Assembly: GCA_951804945.1 (NCBI GenBank)
Contig: OX638150.1
Span: forward strand, 31,682,001 to 31,746,000
Length of the DNA: 64,000 nt
Source of the DNA: Podarcis cretensis
Taxonomy: Eukaryota
Direction: 5' to 3'
Shown one piece after another: positions 584-54,590 of the stretch (position 1 is the stretch's first letter; every line of letters begins with the position of its first letter). A program made the translations under genes and the position numbers. The notes below the pieces were generated by a model that saw only the letters and a program-made list of their open reading frames with translations, did no database searches and had not been told where the DNA came from.

Positions 584-925
584 GTACTGGCTCCTGCTCC
601 CACCCTTCCCTGCTCTACAGTGCCATAGCTTTTCCCGGGATGGGAAGGTTCTATTATCATCCTGTTTACGCCATCATTGCCCATGGCATCACAGCCTTTG
701 TAGGTTAGGGGTATCCCTTCCACACGTCCATGGGTTTGGGGGATGGGTACACTGACTTTTTAAAGTGGCCTTCGATACGAGTCTAGCAGGTTTCTTTTCT
801 TGTCATTCATAAGCCCATTCGTTCCTCCACCAGGTAGGTGGTTCATACGGGGTTCGGGCTGAGTACTGTGGGATGCTGCTGCCTTTTGCTTGTGATGCAT
901 TCTAATTAGCTGATGCCCCATTTAG

Positions 926-1064
926 GCTGGCCAAGTCAACACTGACGCTCATCCCGTTGCTGGGAATCCACGAGGTGGTTTTCGCCTTTGTCACCGATGA
1001 GCATGCCCAGGGCACGCTGCGCTATGTCAAGCTCTTCTTTGACCTCTTCCTCAGCTCCTTCCAG
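926..1064 (+). CDS. GCGR: GCGR coding exon (TM6-ECL3-TM7: [46 protein letters not shown])
   Basis: tttag|G CTG GCC...TTC CAG|gtgagg, 139 nt. Phase continues the previous exon. Diagnostic GCGR motif [11 protein letters not shown]. Confidence 0.95.
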
Positions 1065-1154
1065 GTGAGGCACACCAGAAGCCCATTCTTTGCTCAGGCC
1101 CATTCAAAAACTATAGAGAGACAAGCCTTTCTGGTTGCAATTATTATTTAATGT

Positions 1155-36057: not shown

Positions 36058-36141
36058 TTACAGTTCATCTTTTACAGTGTTTGCATCATCATCGTCTTCT
36101 TCTGCATCTGGCTCTTCAGCATCCTCTAGATCTTCCAGATC
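36058..36141 (-). CDS. P4HB: P4HB exon 11: acidic c region and KDEL (DLEDLEDAEEPDAEEDDDDANTVKDEL*)
   Basis: aaacag|GAT CTG...GAA CTG TAA. ER-retention KDEL. Confidence 0.96.
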   Translation of the reverse strand, partial: DLEDLEDAEEPDAEEDDDDANTVKDEL

Positions 36142-36721
36142 CTGTTTAAATGAAGAAGCAAAAGCTTGGTCAGCTGCAGCTACTCTCACAGCCAGTGCCA
36201 AGGAGGCCAACACACAGTTAGGTCCTGCCAGTGCAGCTGTCATTGCCCTTAATAGCATGAGAAATTCATGTAACTGCCTCTATGCTCAGAACTTTGCTCC
36301 TCTGGCAGACAGAGTCCTGCCTCCCGAGATGTGCAGGCCAAGGAAAGTCCATGCGTTCCATCAAGTCACTCAAGGCAAAATAAAATAAAATAAAAATGGA
36401 AACAACCTACAAATTTCCATATACCAGGCAGAAGGAACTTGTAAGACAATGGGGTCAACACTAGGTCTGTTGCTTTCTGCTTGCCCTATACATCTCAAAA
36501 TTATTTGAATGGATAAAAAACCTGCTGTACCAACTTTAGCACATTCTCCATCTATATAACATTCTGAATCAGATGAATGCCATCGCATTTGAAAACCAAG
36601 TTGGTGATTTTAACGTTTTGATCAACCAAGAAGTGCACAAAAGACCTCTAAGAAACTTACTTTAGAATTAAAACTTCATTAACACAACCATGTACTGTTA
36701 AGGTAAAATCTGATCTCACTT

Positions 36722-37465: not shown

Positions 37466-39063
37466 CACCATACCATTCCACTGCATTTCCTTAAAGAATA
37501 TAGACTGGCTACCAGCATACTGACAAAAAGCAAAGAATATAGGCTGTTATCTTCAACAACAGCCTATGCTGAATAACAGACAGATGTTACCATTATCCTG
37601 TTCTCAGCATCTGGTACCAATGCTTTTTGAATGGAGTACACACTGTGCTGTTGAGCTTGCAACTATGAAAAACCTGCTAGTACACAATTCTTCTCAGAAT
37701 GAGAAAATGCAAAAGCACTTGCAAGAAATACACAGGGCCAGCCAACAGCCAACACAGCACCTCCAAAAATCAGCTGTGAGGGACTAGAATACCATTCACA
37801 GGAAGGACAGAATTTGTTTGCCTCCAATTCAATCACATTCTTCAATTCAAAATCTGTTTTCATGAAACCCAGATTCGAGGACCTGCTACAATCCAAGAAG
37901 ATTTAATGGCCATTTTTGGCCAATGCTTTTGCTCAGTACCTTTATGTTTTTATACCCAAACTTCCACCGGTGACATCTTATAGAACACAGGTTCAAAAGC
38001 TATCTGTCTTCAAGGTGTTGGAACCTGACAAACAACCAAACTGAATAAAAATCCAAATTTCCAAAGTGTACAGAGATGATCTACATGTTAGTGCCAGGTC
38101 TGTGCCTGAAAATCATATAAGTGATAGCTAACTATAGTGTCTATCACCAAGATGCTGAATATCAAAGCCAGTTCACTCTTAAATCACAAAGCCTGGTGCA
38201 AAGACTTAAGCTCAAAACAGGGACAAAGGAATCAAATCGGGATATAGTTTCTGTGTATGCATCACTCATGGTCATTGTACCAAACAGTTAGCACCCTTGA
38301 TAACTGTAGGTCTAGAAGTGTAGTCTACAGAGCTTTAAATCACACAGAACCCACCATACAGGGTCCGGGAACATGCAGAGGTGCAAAGGCTGGGTCACCA
38401 GTTGCTCCCTGTATCCAATGGTAATGTAGGAACGGCAGCCCTGAATGCACAGCAATTCTAACTTGGGCTATGAGCTTTACCCCCTCTATGTTCAGCTGCT
38501 ACTCCTGCTGGGCAGCAGCACCCAGATAAGCCTAGCAGTGCTGCAAAGAGCCAGTAGCATTGCTAGCACAGCAACAGAACAAGCAAAATTTGTTACACAT
38601 GCTGGCAGCAGCGACTACTTGACTCAAGCAAGAGGACACTCGCACCTGGTGCTGGGTGCTGGAGAAAGAGCCAATTCAGTGTAGGGTCATCTCTCGAGAA
38701 CTACAGATAGTAGGGTCAACGCTGGGAAGAATGTAAAAAAAAAATCATGTTTCTTGAACATTTGCAGTTGATCTGGGAATGGTGGGGCTCTCACAGGCTG
38801 ACTGCCTGTTTGTGTGGCCTGGTTAGTCCACATGGAATGGCAGGTATTCAGGAACACCCTTCCCCACCACCCCAGTTCATTCTGGGTATTACCAGCTGTG
38901 CTTTATTTACAAGTTGCTAAGGAACCAGCATTCTTGGCAGCCACAGTAAGCCCAAAGTAGCTTTGCAGGACAAAACTTCCCTTCCACGGGGATTGCATCT
39001 GAACCCTGCCATAAAACAGCTACACAGGCCAGTGCCCAACACGGTCTGGGTTTAGATACTCAC

Positions 39064-48267: not shown

Positions 48268-48537
<270 letters not shown>

Positions 48538-50088
48538 TCAGAATCTCTTTCACGTTTAAGTTGGAGCACTTGATCTAATCACCCCAAGTGGAAACTCCCA
48601 TTATTTCCTTGTTCAGAGGGCAAAGAGCTTCTGTTCACCTTTTTAGGGAGATAAGCCACCATCTTCTCTTCCCCCTTTGCCTTCCAAGACAAAGCTGCCA
48701 CCAGAAGGTGCTATTGAGCACAAAGCTGCTTTACTTGGTACAAAAAATATTTCATAGTAACATTTAAGAGCATGCTGTTTCTATCACCACATTGGCTCAT
48801 GTATATTTAGAGCTTTGGTCACATTATAATATCACTGATGCAAAACGTTCTGCAAGATGCAAGCATTTTCATGCTGACGAATACCACAAAATGGTTGAGT
48901 GAAGAAAAAATACAGGAAACAAGATTTTCTACCACAGTACCAAAGCTTAAAAGCAACAAATAGGTTTTTCAACGCTGTTAAAATTAGATCTGTATTTCTA
49001 ACTCTTGGGAGGCTCCACCCAAAACTAGCTGCCTTTAGAATCTGCTTTAAGCACATCTTACACTGATTATATACAATGCAAGATAAGTTACTATGCCAAT
49101 CTCCATTTCAAAATTCCCCAAATGTAAATAATACGAATTGCCCTTCCCTATACCTGTGAACAGAAAGATTCCTATAGGCAGGAGGGTAGATACCTGCTCA
49201 CTGTGACCATCACCCACATTGCAGGGGTGACAAGTGGAGCTGCAGCCCTGGAGCTTGAGGGTGGTGGTGCAGAAACTGATCCAGTTTTATTGAGCTTTAT
49301 TGATGAAACAATAGGAAAGAGCCATACCCCAGCTGTAAGCTTTGAAGGGGGAAGCTAGGAACAGCCACCACCTTCACCTTCCACTGCCTTGCCTCCTTCA
49401 CTCCCAAAGTTTGCAGCAGGACAGGGGGAGCAAGTGATCGCTCATAATCTCCCGCAGTGCAAGCTCTGGGATAAGACCACCATCCACTGAATACAATGGG
49501 ACATATAAAAACATGCAGAGGATTGCACTGAAGAGGAGGGGCTAGATCCTGACAAATATGTGTTTTTGGCTTGGCTAGCCAGGTTAGGTGAAGCTGGTCC
49601 GGGGGACAGAGCCCTGCTTTCTTTACTTGGACATGGCCAAGCAGTGTGAGAAACAGAAGGGCCGTGTACTCCATATTCTCGAGGCAGCTCTCAAAACTCT
49701 GCTGGACCAAGCTATACACCCACCCACCAAGTCGAAAATGATGCCCAAAGAATTCAGTTCAAGATGTATGGGATTGCTTATTACAGCTACTTTTACCACA
49801 CGAGAAAGAAATCATATAACCAAGCCTGTAACATTTAATGCATATATTGATACAGCAACCTGGGGATGGGTTATTGCTTTTTGTTTTGTTACCATGCAAT
49901 GTATTTTTGTGTTCTGATATTGTAAACTGCACTGCGATCCTTGAATGAAAGGTAGTTTGGAAATTTAATAAATAAAATAAGCCTATTTTTTTTATATGCA
50001 AAAGGTAATAACTAACTCTACCAGCACTCAGAGTGGCTGCGCAGGCTGCCTTTCAAGAAAGCCAAAATCAGAGGCAGGACAGTCATAC

Positions 50089-50301
50089 CTGTGGGAAAAC
50101 TTATCCTACACGTGGCTTCTGTGGCTGCTGCAAGCTCTTCTTCCCATACAACTGAAAGCACTTCTTCCCCTATAACTGGAAGCTCATCTTCCTCTGCAAC
50201 TGAAAGCTCATCTTCCTCTGCAACTGAAAGCTCATCTTCCGCTATAACTGAAAGCACTTTTTCCCCTACAACTGGAAGCTCATCTTCCCCTACAATGGGA
50301 T
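50089..50301 (-). CDS. Candidate alternative P4HB exon encoding a 71-aa acidic 8-residue repeat (DPIVGEDELPVVGEKVLSVIAEDELSV...ISFPT)
   Basis: cccccatccttag|AT CCC...CCC ACA G|gtatga, 213 nt. Phase 1-1 like the host intron, with no stops. Unverified by expression. Confidence 0.35.
50127..50294. repeat. Minisatellite, 7 x 24 bp (consensus actgaaagctcatcttcccctaca), in P4HB intron 2
   Basis: Seven units read directly. All are exactly 24 nt and differ only by substitutions. Confidence 0.92.
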
Positions 50302-52497
50302 CTAAGGATGGGGGACTGGCCATTCTGTAGTGTTGCCCTCCCAATTTAGTTTTTCACCAGCCACCAGCACAAAAAGTTAATAGCTGAAGACCATTCAGCT
50401 TCCTAAATGAGGAGATTTTTGTGCCTATTTCTAGGTGACAGGCTCCTAAGCAAGGCGGGATTCTTCCCAACTGTCACCATGGAATCTCGGGAGAGAATCA
50501 GCAGCAATGTCTAAGGAACAGGCTTCTTACATCATTGTGCCCCACCCCCATCCTACTTCTGTACCTTCCATCAGCCACCACTACCTTTTAAAAACTTCAT
50601 TATTTTGACCTGTGTGATTTTTCTTTTTTTATATGACTAGGAGTTTTAATAACTCTTTGACCACAGGCTTTCCATTATGATGGTTAGGGAAAAGTATGTT
50701 ACAATCAGCATAACCAACCATTCAGAATGATCAGGCATGCTGATCAGCTGTCTGCCAGTAGCTTTGGTGATAAAAGTAGTTTGTCTAGCACTAATATCAT
50801 CCATGTATATGGCACAACTCATGAATTGTAGAGTTGAGAGTGACCCTGGGTTTTATCTAATCTGATCCCCTGTAAGGCAAGAATCTCAACAAAATCTTTC
50901 AGACGAAGGACATGTCCCTGCCCCAAGGCTCTTACCATTTAGAAACAGATAAAGCAGGCAAACAAAGGAACGGAAGGGAAAGAGGGATGGGGTAAACATG
51001 GGGAAAATTACATTTCAGTTACATGTATTAAAGGCTTAGTTGCAATGGTGCTTTAGGAGTAGGGGTCTGTCAAAAGCTTCGTGGAAAAGGTGATTTTGCA
51101 AATGGTTATGTAGGAAGGGTTTTGGGAGGCAGTTCAAGTCACAAGGTACAGTCGTTGAAGGAGCAGAAGACAGCTAGATGACCAAGCATGGAGGTGCTGG
51201 CTAAGCAAAAGAGACAGGGAAAGAGATATGGGAGGATGTGGCAGCAGTGAGGCAAGAGGGTGAAAGCTACTGAGAGCTTTGAAGATGAATCAGGGAGGAC
51301 TCAAAGGCAACATAGGGCTGCAAGAAGGGTATTTCTGTGCTCAGAATAATTTTGCCAAGAGTGATGAATATAGGCAAGATTATCAAGTCCAGAGGGCAGA
51401 AGGCTGGATGGATCAGAGATTTTTGCTGAGGGACAACAGGGAGCAGAGTGCAGGTAATGTTATAAAGCAGTCTTACTCATCTGCATGTCCTACAGATACT
51501 GCTAGACTTCCACCTCAACCCCATTTTCCAACAAGTAACATGTGGAAGAAAAACTGTTACTATTTTTATCATTTATGACATGCTAGTGCCTATGCTTTTG
51601 TGTTTTTAAATGCAACTACAGGTGCATGCTTGTCTCAGTTACACAAAACTGGGAATATGAAATATTTGATAAACTCTCATTTAGTTTTGATACAACTTCA
51701 AAAAATAGGACATCCATTTTATACGTAGGAAAGAGGCTGAAATAGACTCTAGTGAATGAATGGCTATGACTGAGCAGTAGCATGAGCTCAGTGCCTTGAG
51801 TCACAGACTTCTCCTTCAAGGCTAGAATGCTGTTCAGAATACAGACACTGAAATAGTCACTGCTTAATAGATTTATTGCCTTTGGCTGTAGCCCTATCTA
51901 CCTCTTCTTGGCAGCAAGCCTCACTGACCTCCATGGAGCTTACTACTGAATAGATATACACAGAATTGGGCTGTAAGGAATAAACAATGGTGAGGGAGGG
52001 TATTACATGCAGTAAATTGCTCCAAGAGCTGCAATTTTGCATTTGTGATTCCATCATATACAAAGCAGGGAGCAGATATATCCTAAGGGCAACTATTAAA
52101 AAGCAATACCAACTTGTCCTTAATTTGTGTCAGAGGAGTTCTAAGCTAGAAATGCAAAACCACGGTACCTTATTCCTATTTAACAGATTATCCTTGTCTT
52201 TCTAGTGACTAGAAAAATTACATGCAAGGACAAAGTTGCAAGTCGTCTATGAAAAACAATTTTTCGTGGGACTATTTAGCAGAGACGTTTGAACTGGTGA
52301 AATATATATATACAACATGAACAAACAGCTTAAAGGAGGCAGAGAACCATATCTGAACAACATGAAGTGAAAGCCAACAGTTAAGGCATCAAAACCAAGA
52401 AGTATCCTCTTGTGTCACTTTTGCTTTATGTTCCAGGTTTGGTCCCCCCACCTCAATTCACATGTTCCAGACTTTTTAGCCATTACCATAGTCTCAC

Positions 52498-52704
52498 CTG
52501 TGTATTCTTTAGGGGATGATTTATCACCATTCTTGAAGAATTTGATAGTAGGGTAGCCTCGAACACCAAACTGTTGGGCAAGCTCTGATTCTTCTGTTGC
52601 ATCCACCTTGGCCAGCCTGATTTCTGAGTTGTCAGATTTCAATTTTGCTGCCGCCTTCACATACTCTGGGGCCAGAGCTTTACAGTGACCACACCAGGGT
52701 GCAT
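52498..52704 (-). CDS. P4HB: P4HB exon 2, a-domain active site WCGHC
   Basis: tttcag|AT GCA CCC TGG TGT GGT CAC TGT...TAC ACA G|gtgaga, 207 nt. Confidence 0.97.
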
Positions 52705-53429: not shown

Positions 53430-54590
53430 GGCCTATTCCATGCATCCGGGACACGCCAACAGCAAAAGACGAGCAAACGCCTACAGGCCCCTCTTTGGGC
53501 TGGTAAAAGACATTACCGCAGCCAGCGCACGCCAGCTCTCGCAAGTCCCCTTCTCACGTGAACTGTGTAACGTCTGAATAGGCAGGGGTTGTTTTCCTAA
53601 TGGCGGGGGACGACGACCCGCTAACGTGAAAAAGCCTGTTCCCCATCCCTCCCCTAAACCGAACAGGGGGACCCCAACCTCAGTTTCCCCTCCCACCCGG
53701 CCGGCCTTCCCTCTCCACCCTCATCCGCGCTCCCCCCCCCCGGCGCCCCTCCACTCACAGAACTCCACCAGGATGTTCGGGTGCTGCTCCAACGCCCGCT
53801 CGAAGTTGGCCGCCTTGAGCACCAGGACGCCCTCGTCCTCCTCGATATCTGCGTCGCCGGCCAGGCAGGCCCGTCCCAGGAAGAGCAGGCAGAGGAGCGG
53901 AGAGAAGAGCAGAGCGGTCTTCATGGCGGCGCTGACAATGACGGCAGGATCCCAGGCGAACAGACCGGACCACGAAGTGGCGCCGCAAAAGAGAACACTC
54001 CGCGCCCGCCTCCCGCTTTATAAACCCGCCCTCTCCCCGCTGCGTCTATCGCCCATTGGCTGCTTCCGCCCTCCTACGCTTCAGCTCCCATTGAACTGGC
54101 GTGGAGCCTAAGGCCGCCCTCCGGGTCCTGGATTGGTCAGCTTTAAAGGTCGCGTCGCCTTTCCTTCCCCACTTCCGAACAGCCGCGAGAGTTTCCTTTG
54201 CTCCGCGGGCTTTGATTGGCCGTACCGACCTCTCCGGTGACTGGGATTGGATAACGCGGCCGCTCTTAGAAACTCGGACCAGCCGTTTCTGATTGGTTAA
54301 CCTCAACGAAATTCCCTCCCCTCCCCGCCTACTTTCGCCTCTCTTCTTTGGAACGTGGCATTCGAGAGATACGCCCGCCTCGCGCTGCGCATGCGTGTTT
54401 GAGTGTGGCAGGGAGACCTCGTTCGTGTTTGATTCTGACTGGCCGCATTTAATGAGCGACCCGGAATTGAAAGCTAGCAAGGAACCAAGTGTTTCCGGGA
54501 CTGTACGAAAGAGGGGGAGGCTTTTGCATAAGAACTGCTTAGAAGTGGGCGGGGGAGCGGGGAACTCAAGCGAGCAAGTTTATTACGATG
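53430..54590 (-). promoter_or_regulatory. P4HB CpG-island promoter: TATAAA (54022-54017), five CCAAT boxes (54055, 54132, 54215, 54246, 54292), GC boxes, NRF1-like TGCGCATGCG (54386-54395)
   Basis: Motifs read directly. TATA plus multiple CCAAT boxes is the known architecture of the mammalian P4HB promoter. Confidence 0.85.
53759..53924 (-). CDS. P4HB: P4HB exon 1: signal peptide and start of domain a (MKTALLFSPLLCLLFLGRACLAGDADIEEDEGVLVLKAANFERALEQHPNILVEF)
   Basis: gccgccATG Kozak. TTC T|gtgagt donor. The 11 exons sum to 1551 nt = 516 aa plus stop. Confidence 0.96.

Follow-up and report, generated by a model that had tools for sequence, protein, structure and literature searches.

Acidic tandem repeat in P4HB intron 2 of wall lizards as a probable alternative first exon for a signal-peptide-less protein disulfide isomerase

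RESULTS

A tandem-repeat array with an open reading frame lies in P4HB intron 2

The window (the whole stretch of 64,000 nucleotides that we analyzed) carries the complete P4HB gene on its minus strand. Its 11 exons, separated by GT-AG introns, encode a canonical product of 516 amino acids (aa) that has two CGHC motifs and a KDEL end and that differs at 2 residues from the Podarcis muralis RefSeq protein. The segment described here sits in intron 2, between exons 2 and 3 (Table 1), and short fragments of dispersed repeats flank it at 49884-49981 and ~50800-50910, where many unrelated contigs and genome places match. Elsewhere in the window, frames at 29252-27713 (minus strand), downstream of P4HB, resemble an ankyrin-repeat phosphatase regulator, which we take to be PPP1R27-like, and a frame at 906-1148 (plus strand) resembles a transmembrane segment, presumably glucagon-receptor-like. 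Related lizard protein disulfide isomerase (PDI) records differ by one residue at the exon starts at 36141-36144 and 48512 (both minus strand): Phrynosoma PDI has one more residue, a Q, ahead of the last exon, and the exon 3 A is missing from Rhineura X2. These one-residue differences suggest tandem acceptors at P4HB exon starts in those species.

A first-pass annotation had described, in intron 2, seven indel-free 24-bp units in an open frame with an ATG at 50323 and a phase-1 donor at 50089. We confirmed this description by using TRF and translation. TRF reported a period-24 array with 7.0 copies, 84% matches, and 0% indels, and translation of the minus strand from 50323 to 50087 gave 79 aa with no stop; the remaining two frames over 50089-50477 have 7 and 11 stops. 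The donor (CAG/GTATGA) falls 235 nt from the ATG and is in phase 1, like those of exons 1 and 2. The ATG has A at -3 and G at +4, the positions at which a start codon is judged against the Kozak consensus. Because the TGA at 50356 is in the frame of this ATG, a longer reading frame from the 5′ side is impossible.

The same annotation had placed an acceptor at 50301, which would give a 213-nt exon. That AG is present, as one among many; no other AG nearby has as long a pyrimidine tract as the one at 50485 (15, versus 13 at 50301). The annotation had also warned that a variable-number repeat can be stop-free by chance, and the warning was justified. When the columns of the array were shuffled, 25.7% of the arrays were open in a given frame and 64.8% were open in any frame. 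The open frame by itself is not beyond chance expectation, so the sequence alone is weak evidence, and it is the splice evidence that makes the acidic-repeat exon real.

Table 1. Positions in the window of P4HB exons and of features associated with the acidic-repeat exon
Feature	Position	Strand	Remark
Candidate alternative 3′ exon, intron 10	38646..38721	-	Acceptor followed by Arg-stop; the 38646 end is a guessed donor
P4HB exon 3	48379..48512	-	Common to both forms; joints from 52498 and 50089
Splice donor GTATGA, used	50083..50088	-	Joint 48512-50089; skips 1576; ends CT..AC on the plus strand
Coding part of alternative exon	50089..50323	-	ATG 50323; 78 codons + 1 nt; phase 1
Alternative, likely first, P4HB exon (minimum extent)	50089..50477	-	X3 and X4 contigs
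Seven 24-bp units, 8-residue acidic repeat	50128..50295	-	Seven units also in P. lilfordi CAI5765871.1
Acceptor AG proposed in the first-pass annotation	50302..50303	-	Crossed unspliced by contigs of X3, X4, and X7
In-frame TGA 5′ of ATG 50323	50354..50356	-	Closes the ATG frame upstream
Upstream open reading frame (uORF), five codons, in 5′ leader	50377..50394	-	T at -3
Putative internal promoter region	50478..50820	-	Single-copy, CpG-poor; promoter role inferred
P4HB exon 2	52498..52704	-	Carries the first CGHC; missing from the alternative form
P4HB exon 1, coding part	53759..53924	-	Signal peptide; missing from the alternative form

The acidic-repeat exon is joined to exon 3 in assembled sequencing runs

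A query with 50089-50450 pointed to 23 sequencing runs. Part of the query occurs in 21 of them, 16 of which are guessed to be RNA; none is recorded as RNA, which counts neither for nor against that guess. We examined 8 of the 23 runs, 7 of them RNA-type by the same guess: X3 and X4, from one study of organism B (a close relative), and five runs of organism A. In all of them, the contigs indicate no transcription start, strand, or level, and rare variants are dropped.

Run X3 yielded a 414-nt contig (depth, 55) in which 50089-50477 is followed by 25 nt of exon 3; the joint, between 48512 and 50089, has GT-AG ends. X3 also carries the canonical joints 53759-52704 and 52498-48512 (depth, 74.5) and hence holds spliced RNA. 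In run X4, another sample of the same study, a single contig covers 50089-50466 and has a 25-nt loose end that matches the start of exon 3 with 1 mismatch, which is synonymous. The donor at 50089 is thus joined to exon 3, as the first-pass annotation had supposed, in 2 of the 7 RNA-type runs examined, both from one study. The repeat array is gap-free in the contigs of X3, X4, and X7.

The 50089-to-48512 junction was not seen in the five organism A runs (X1, X2, X7, X8, and X13). Contigs of X1 and X2 (depth, 5 to 7) continue past the donor without splicing, those of X7 and X13 span part of the exon but stop short of the donor, and X8 has nothing on the exon. The spliced form was seen in runs of one study of organism B and not in the organism A runs; the tissues are not on record. 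Run X20, whose kind is not recorded and which is DNA-sized, goes on to 50640.

The RNA status of the runs is guessed, which leaves room for the joined form to be DNA, namely, a processed retrocopy in organism B. We regard this as extremely improbable: the acidic-repeat segment is single-copy in its own genome, both as DNA and as peptide, and X3 covers little of the introns and includes the canonical joints. Even if there were a retrocopy, it would imply the former existence of the transcript.

The assembly pattern points to a first exon

The X3 canonical contig spans exons 1 and 2 without a break and ends after the first 25 nt of exon 3. In the X3 assembly, two paths converge at exon 3, and neither exon 1 nor exon 2 is followed by a fork. 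From this branching, we infer the pattern of an alternative first exon. At the 5′ ends of the X3 (50477) and X4 (50466) contigs, we found no foreign letters, loose end, or exon 2 sequence. Of the three models in the first-pass annotation, the internal first exon without a signal peptide agrees with these contigs, which lack an upstream exon, and with the unbroken contig of exons 1, 2, and 3. We concluded that the acidic-repeat exon is very probably a first exon.

The other two models, a 213-nt cassette and an exon used in mutual exclusion with exon 2, would both start at the 50301 acceptor and insert the acidic repeat into the endoplasmic reticulum (ER) form of PDI. Such an exon would be of phase 1-1 with an open frame, and as a minor form it could be lost from contigs that drop rare variants. 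However, none of the 4 runs examined across exons 1 to 3 has a 52498-to-50301 or 53759-to-50301 joint, and both spliced contigs cross 50301 unspliced and run on through the TGA at 50356. Nor does any of the 120 exon 3 homologues listed (of 220) have the new N terminus or such an insert. The 50301 AG thus exists with no use seen, and an exon beginning there is highly improbable.

An internal poison exon that lowers PDI through nonsense-mediated decay would use an acceptor upstream of the contig ends. The AG at 50485 lies 8 to 19 nt beyond those ends, and there are stops in every frame over 50089-50477. We consider this reading improbable as well, in that neither contig has a loose end or exon 2 letters at its 5′ side, X3 shows no fork after exon 2, and the P. 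lilfordi model described below starts at the acidic exon.

The region upstream of the contig ends is CpG-poor

On the reading of a first exon, transcription would start in the region just upstream of the contigs. CpG observed/expected is 0.14 over 50450-50950, versus 0.90 at the canonical CpG-island promoter; a CpG-poor, single-copy region is compatible with a young promoter of tissue-restricted activity. The 100 nt upstream of the contig ends contain two TGATGNAA sites and a CACCC-like box, but the window as a whole has 23 copies of TGATGNAA, versus 15.5 expected, and we propose no regulator on this basis. In run X1, a low-depth contig goes back 33 nt at 50722-50754, possibly a small duplication in organism A, 5′ of the putative promoter.

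A Podarcis lilfordi protein record begins with the acidic-repeat exon

The first-pass annotation knew of no such P4HB exon, a statement that no longer holds. A P. lilfordi record (CAI5765871.1; UniRef100_A0AA35JUA6), a 444-aa "protein disulfide-isomerase," begins at the equivalent of ATG 50323 and joins exon 3 in frame. We found it among the 15 members listed of the 30 in a lizard PDI cluster; among the same 15, P. muralis, P. raffonei, Lacerta agilis, and Zootoca vivipara are represented by canonical forms alone. Its N terminus is identical to that of the window at 71 of 78 residues, with all 7 differences in repeat codons 28 to 50, and it ends in DEDR and lacks KDEL.

CAI5765871.1 is an automatic annotation record that does not comment on the isoform. 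P. lilfordi annotation draws on a mix of transcript and ab initio evidence; if this model is transcript-based, the exon is not testis-only. We found no paper on a P4HB intron 2 acidic-repeat isoform in a literature search that covered few of the subscription journals. We concluded that the isoform is real and already stands, uncommented, as one annotation record.

The predicted product has one CGHC motif and no signal peptide

The 78 new residues include 22 D/E and 2 K/R (pI 4.05). Their peak hydropathy is 1.66, compared to 2.59 in canonical exon 1, and they contain no signal-peptide-like hydrophobic core. The alternative product, as represented by CAI5765871.1, keeps Thioredoxin_6 (PF13848, b and b′; E = 1.5e-46) and has one Thioredoxin domain (PF00085) with one CGHC, versus two in canonical PDI. 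Pfam gave no match to the new N terminus. Predicted sizes are 52.3 kDa for 470 aa (KDEL end) and 49.4 kDa for 444 aa. The AlphaFold model of CAI5765871.1 has a mean pLDDT of 55, with residues 1 to 96 below 50 and zero alignment depth over the new N terminus, a quality too low for structural interpretation.

As predicted from its sequence, the alternative form would not be canonical ER PDIA1, being without a signal peptide and without the set of two CGHC domains. Because the signal peptide is missing, the one-CGHC product is probably cytosolic. Full isomerase activity is described as requiring all four PDI domains (PMC7640458), and a role as a cytosolic chaperone or thiol reductase, rather than an isomerase, is therefore most likely.

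The acidic repeat has a V-x-G rhythm with a period of 8 residues, which is reminiscent of the beta-helix repeats of phage gp5; we make no structural claim from this likeness.

Intron 10 offers a candidate KDEL-less 3′ end

The first-pass annotation had the internal first exon lead into a protein that keeps b-b′-a′-KDEL. The b-b′-a′ part is retained, with one CGHC; the KDEL part is uncertain, given the DEDR end of the P. lilfordi record. In the window, intron 10 has two AGs followed by Arg-stop, at 38721 (the better, with pyrimidines at 17 of 19 positions) and at 38692. A candidate exon at 38721 would drop the acidic tail and KDEL. A window model through this acceptor is also 444 aa long, ends in DEDR, and has 8 differences from CAI5765871.1, with which it shares the ATG, the seven-unit N terminus, and the join to exon 3. 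The record ends in DEDR, whereas the window allows either DEDR or KDEL. The intron 10 acceptors with Arg-stop may account for the absence of KDEL from the P. lilfordi record.

Downstream of exon 3, the X3 contig is 1975 nt long, versus 1997 nt for the canonical path to the polyA signal. This length fits a KDEL end and is not decisive.

If the 38721 exon were spliced as a cassette, ~70 nt would separate its stop from the last junction, a distance at which nonsense-mediated decay may come into play; as a terminal exon, it could make use of an ATTAAA at 37907.

Substitutions in the exon look neutral, and homologues were found only in Podarcis

The coding codon differences listed relative to the window are 5 nonsynonymous and 1 synonymous for organism B and 6 and 1 for organism A. 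Pooled, 3 of 11 listed substitutions are synonymous, versus 2.75 expected (P = 0.54), a comparison of too few changes to carry much weight. Stops are absent among the 11 listed changes (chance P = 0.61), and indels are absent (P about 0.49); 8 of the 20 X4 differences are unlisted, and a stop among those 8 is possible. On these counts, there is no sign of purifying selection in the acidic exon. Several substitutions turn one unit type into another, which may reflect an exchange between repeat units.

A protein search with the new N terminus gave 0 of 700 longer candidates at an E value of ≤1; it also missed the P. lilfordi record (a nonrepresentative cluster member), which makes it a weak search. 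Among candidates of near length, 0 of 12 matched at an E value of ≤10, an equally weak result in that the P. lilfordi record was likewise missed. A representative-sequence search returned 12 matches, and the 9 inspected were unrelated short-period repeat proteins, with no PDI. The exon looks young and so far is found only in Podarcis-like genomes.

A transposon as the source of the exon or its putative promoter is not supported: in a search that skips very common words, the exon is single-copy, and the dispersed repeat nearby lies at ~50800-50910, with one isolated match further up.

DISCUSSION

The reading that we favor, with somewhat better than even confidence, is an alternative first exon in P4HB intron 2, driven by an internal promoter, that would head a PDI with a single active site, no signal peptide, and a probably cytosolic location. 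Transcription would start at or above about 50477. Ribosomes would bypass the five-codon uORF, or re-initiate after it, and begin translation at ATG 50323. The signal peptide and nearly the whole of domain a would then give way to the 78 acidic residues, with b-b′-x-a′ and its one CGHC coming from exons 3 to 10. At the C terminus, either the usual KDEL exon would be used (470 aa) or the Arg-stop exon at 38721 (444 aa), which would give the end found in P. lilfordi CAI5765871.1.

The main alternative is a real start without function: the promoter would be young, leaky, and tissue-specific, and its transcript, although spliced to exon 3, would yield little or unstable protein, the frame being an accident of the repeat. 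The neutral-looking substitutions and the 26% chance of an open frame would suit such a start, as would the uORF at 50394, the lack of a homologue found outside Podarcis, and the last helix of domain a, which, orphaned, may be unstable. Against this, the depth of the spliced X3 contig (55) is comparable in magnitude to that of the canonical 5′ contig (74.5), although depth is a poor measure. In addition, the window and P. lilfordi share the ATG, donor, frame, and number of units, and the organism B contigs show no gap between the leader and the donor in use. A start without function is, in our judgment, a real contender that nonetheless falls on the unlikely side.

Returning to the first exon that encodes a protein, we think it fairly probable that a stable signal-less protein is made and doubtful that it is a dedicated functional cytosolic PDI. 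The most far-reaching version, which we put forward only tentatively, is that an intronic minisatellite turned coding first exon, paired with a KDEL-removing 3′ exon, gives wall lizards a dedicated, abundant, tissue-specific cytosolic PDI (acidic tail-b-b′-a′).

The principle has precedents. PRDX4t, the testis-specific variant of peroxiredoxin 4, uses an alternative promoter and first exon that drop the signal peptide, making the protein cytosolic; as described in the account of the variant, the promoter lies upstream, exon 2 is shared, the location was shown, and knockout mice are fertile (PMC7577974). Both it and the lizard form concern ER redox enzymes with a signal-dropping alternative first exon, the location of the lizard form being predicted. 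Unlike PRDX4t, the lizard form would use an internal promoter and lose a catalytic domain. GRP78va, a cytosolic BiP isoform, arises by retention of intron 1 and internal initiation (PMC2729930). It resembles the lizard form as a signal-peptide-less version of a major ER folding factor from the same gene. It differs in having no new coding exon, whereas the lizard form gains an N terminus built from a repeat.

Human P4HB splice variants include domain-deleted PDIA1 with a predicted loss of isomerase activity or ER location, and the sections on these variants describe no intron 2 first exon with a repeat N terminus (PMC7640458). Chick "cognin" was considered as a precedent and set aside; the passages on it treat it as PDI itself (PMC4660867). 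A 2025 review calls the cytosolic location of the PDI family "so far elusive" and explains it by ER reflux (PMC12781119).

The finding has limits: the principle is known from PRDX4t and GRP78va, one annotation already includes the record, and the transcript could be nonfunctional. If true, it would provide a gene-encoded source of cytosolic PDIA1 that is independent of ER reflux, that is, a second route. A natural signal-less isoform would be a ready reagent for the role of a one-active-site PDI in the cytosol. The locus also offers a testable case of a coding exon born from a tandem repeat within one lizard lineage and, if true, caught soon after birth.
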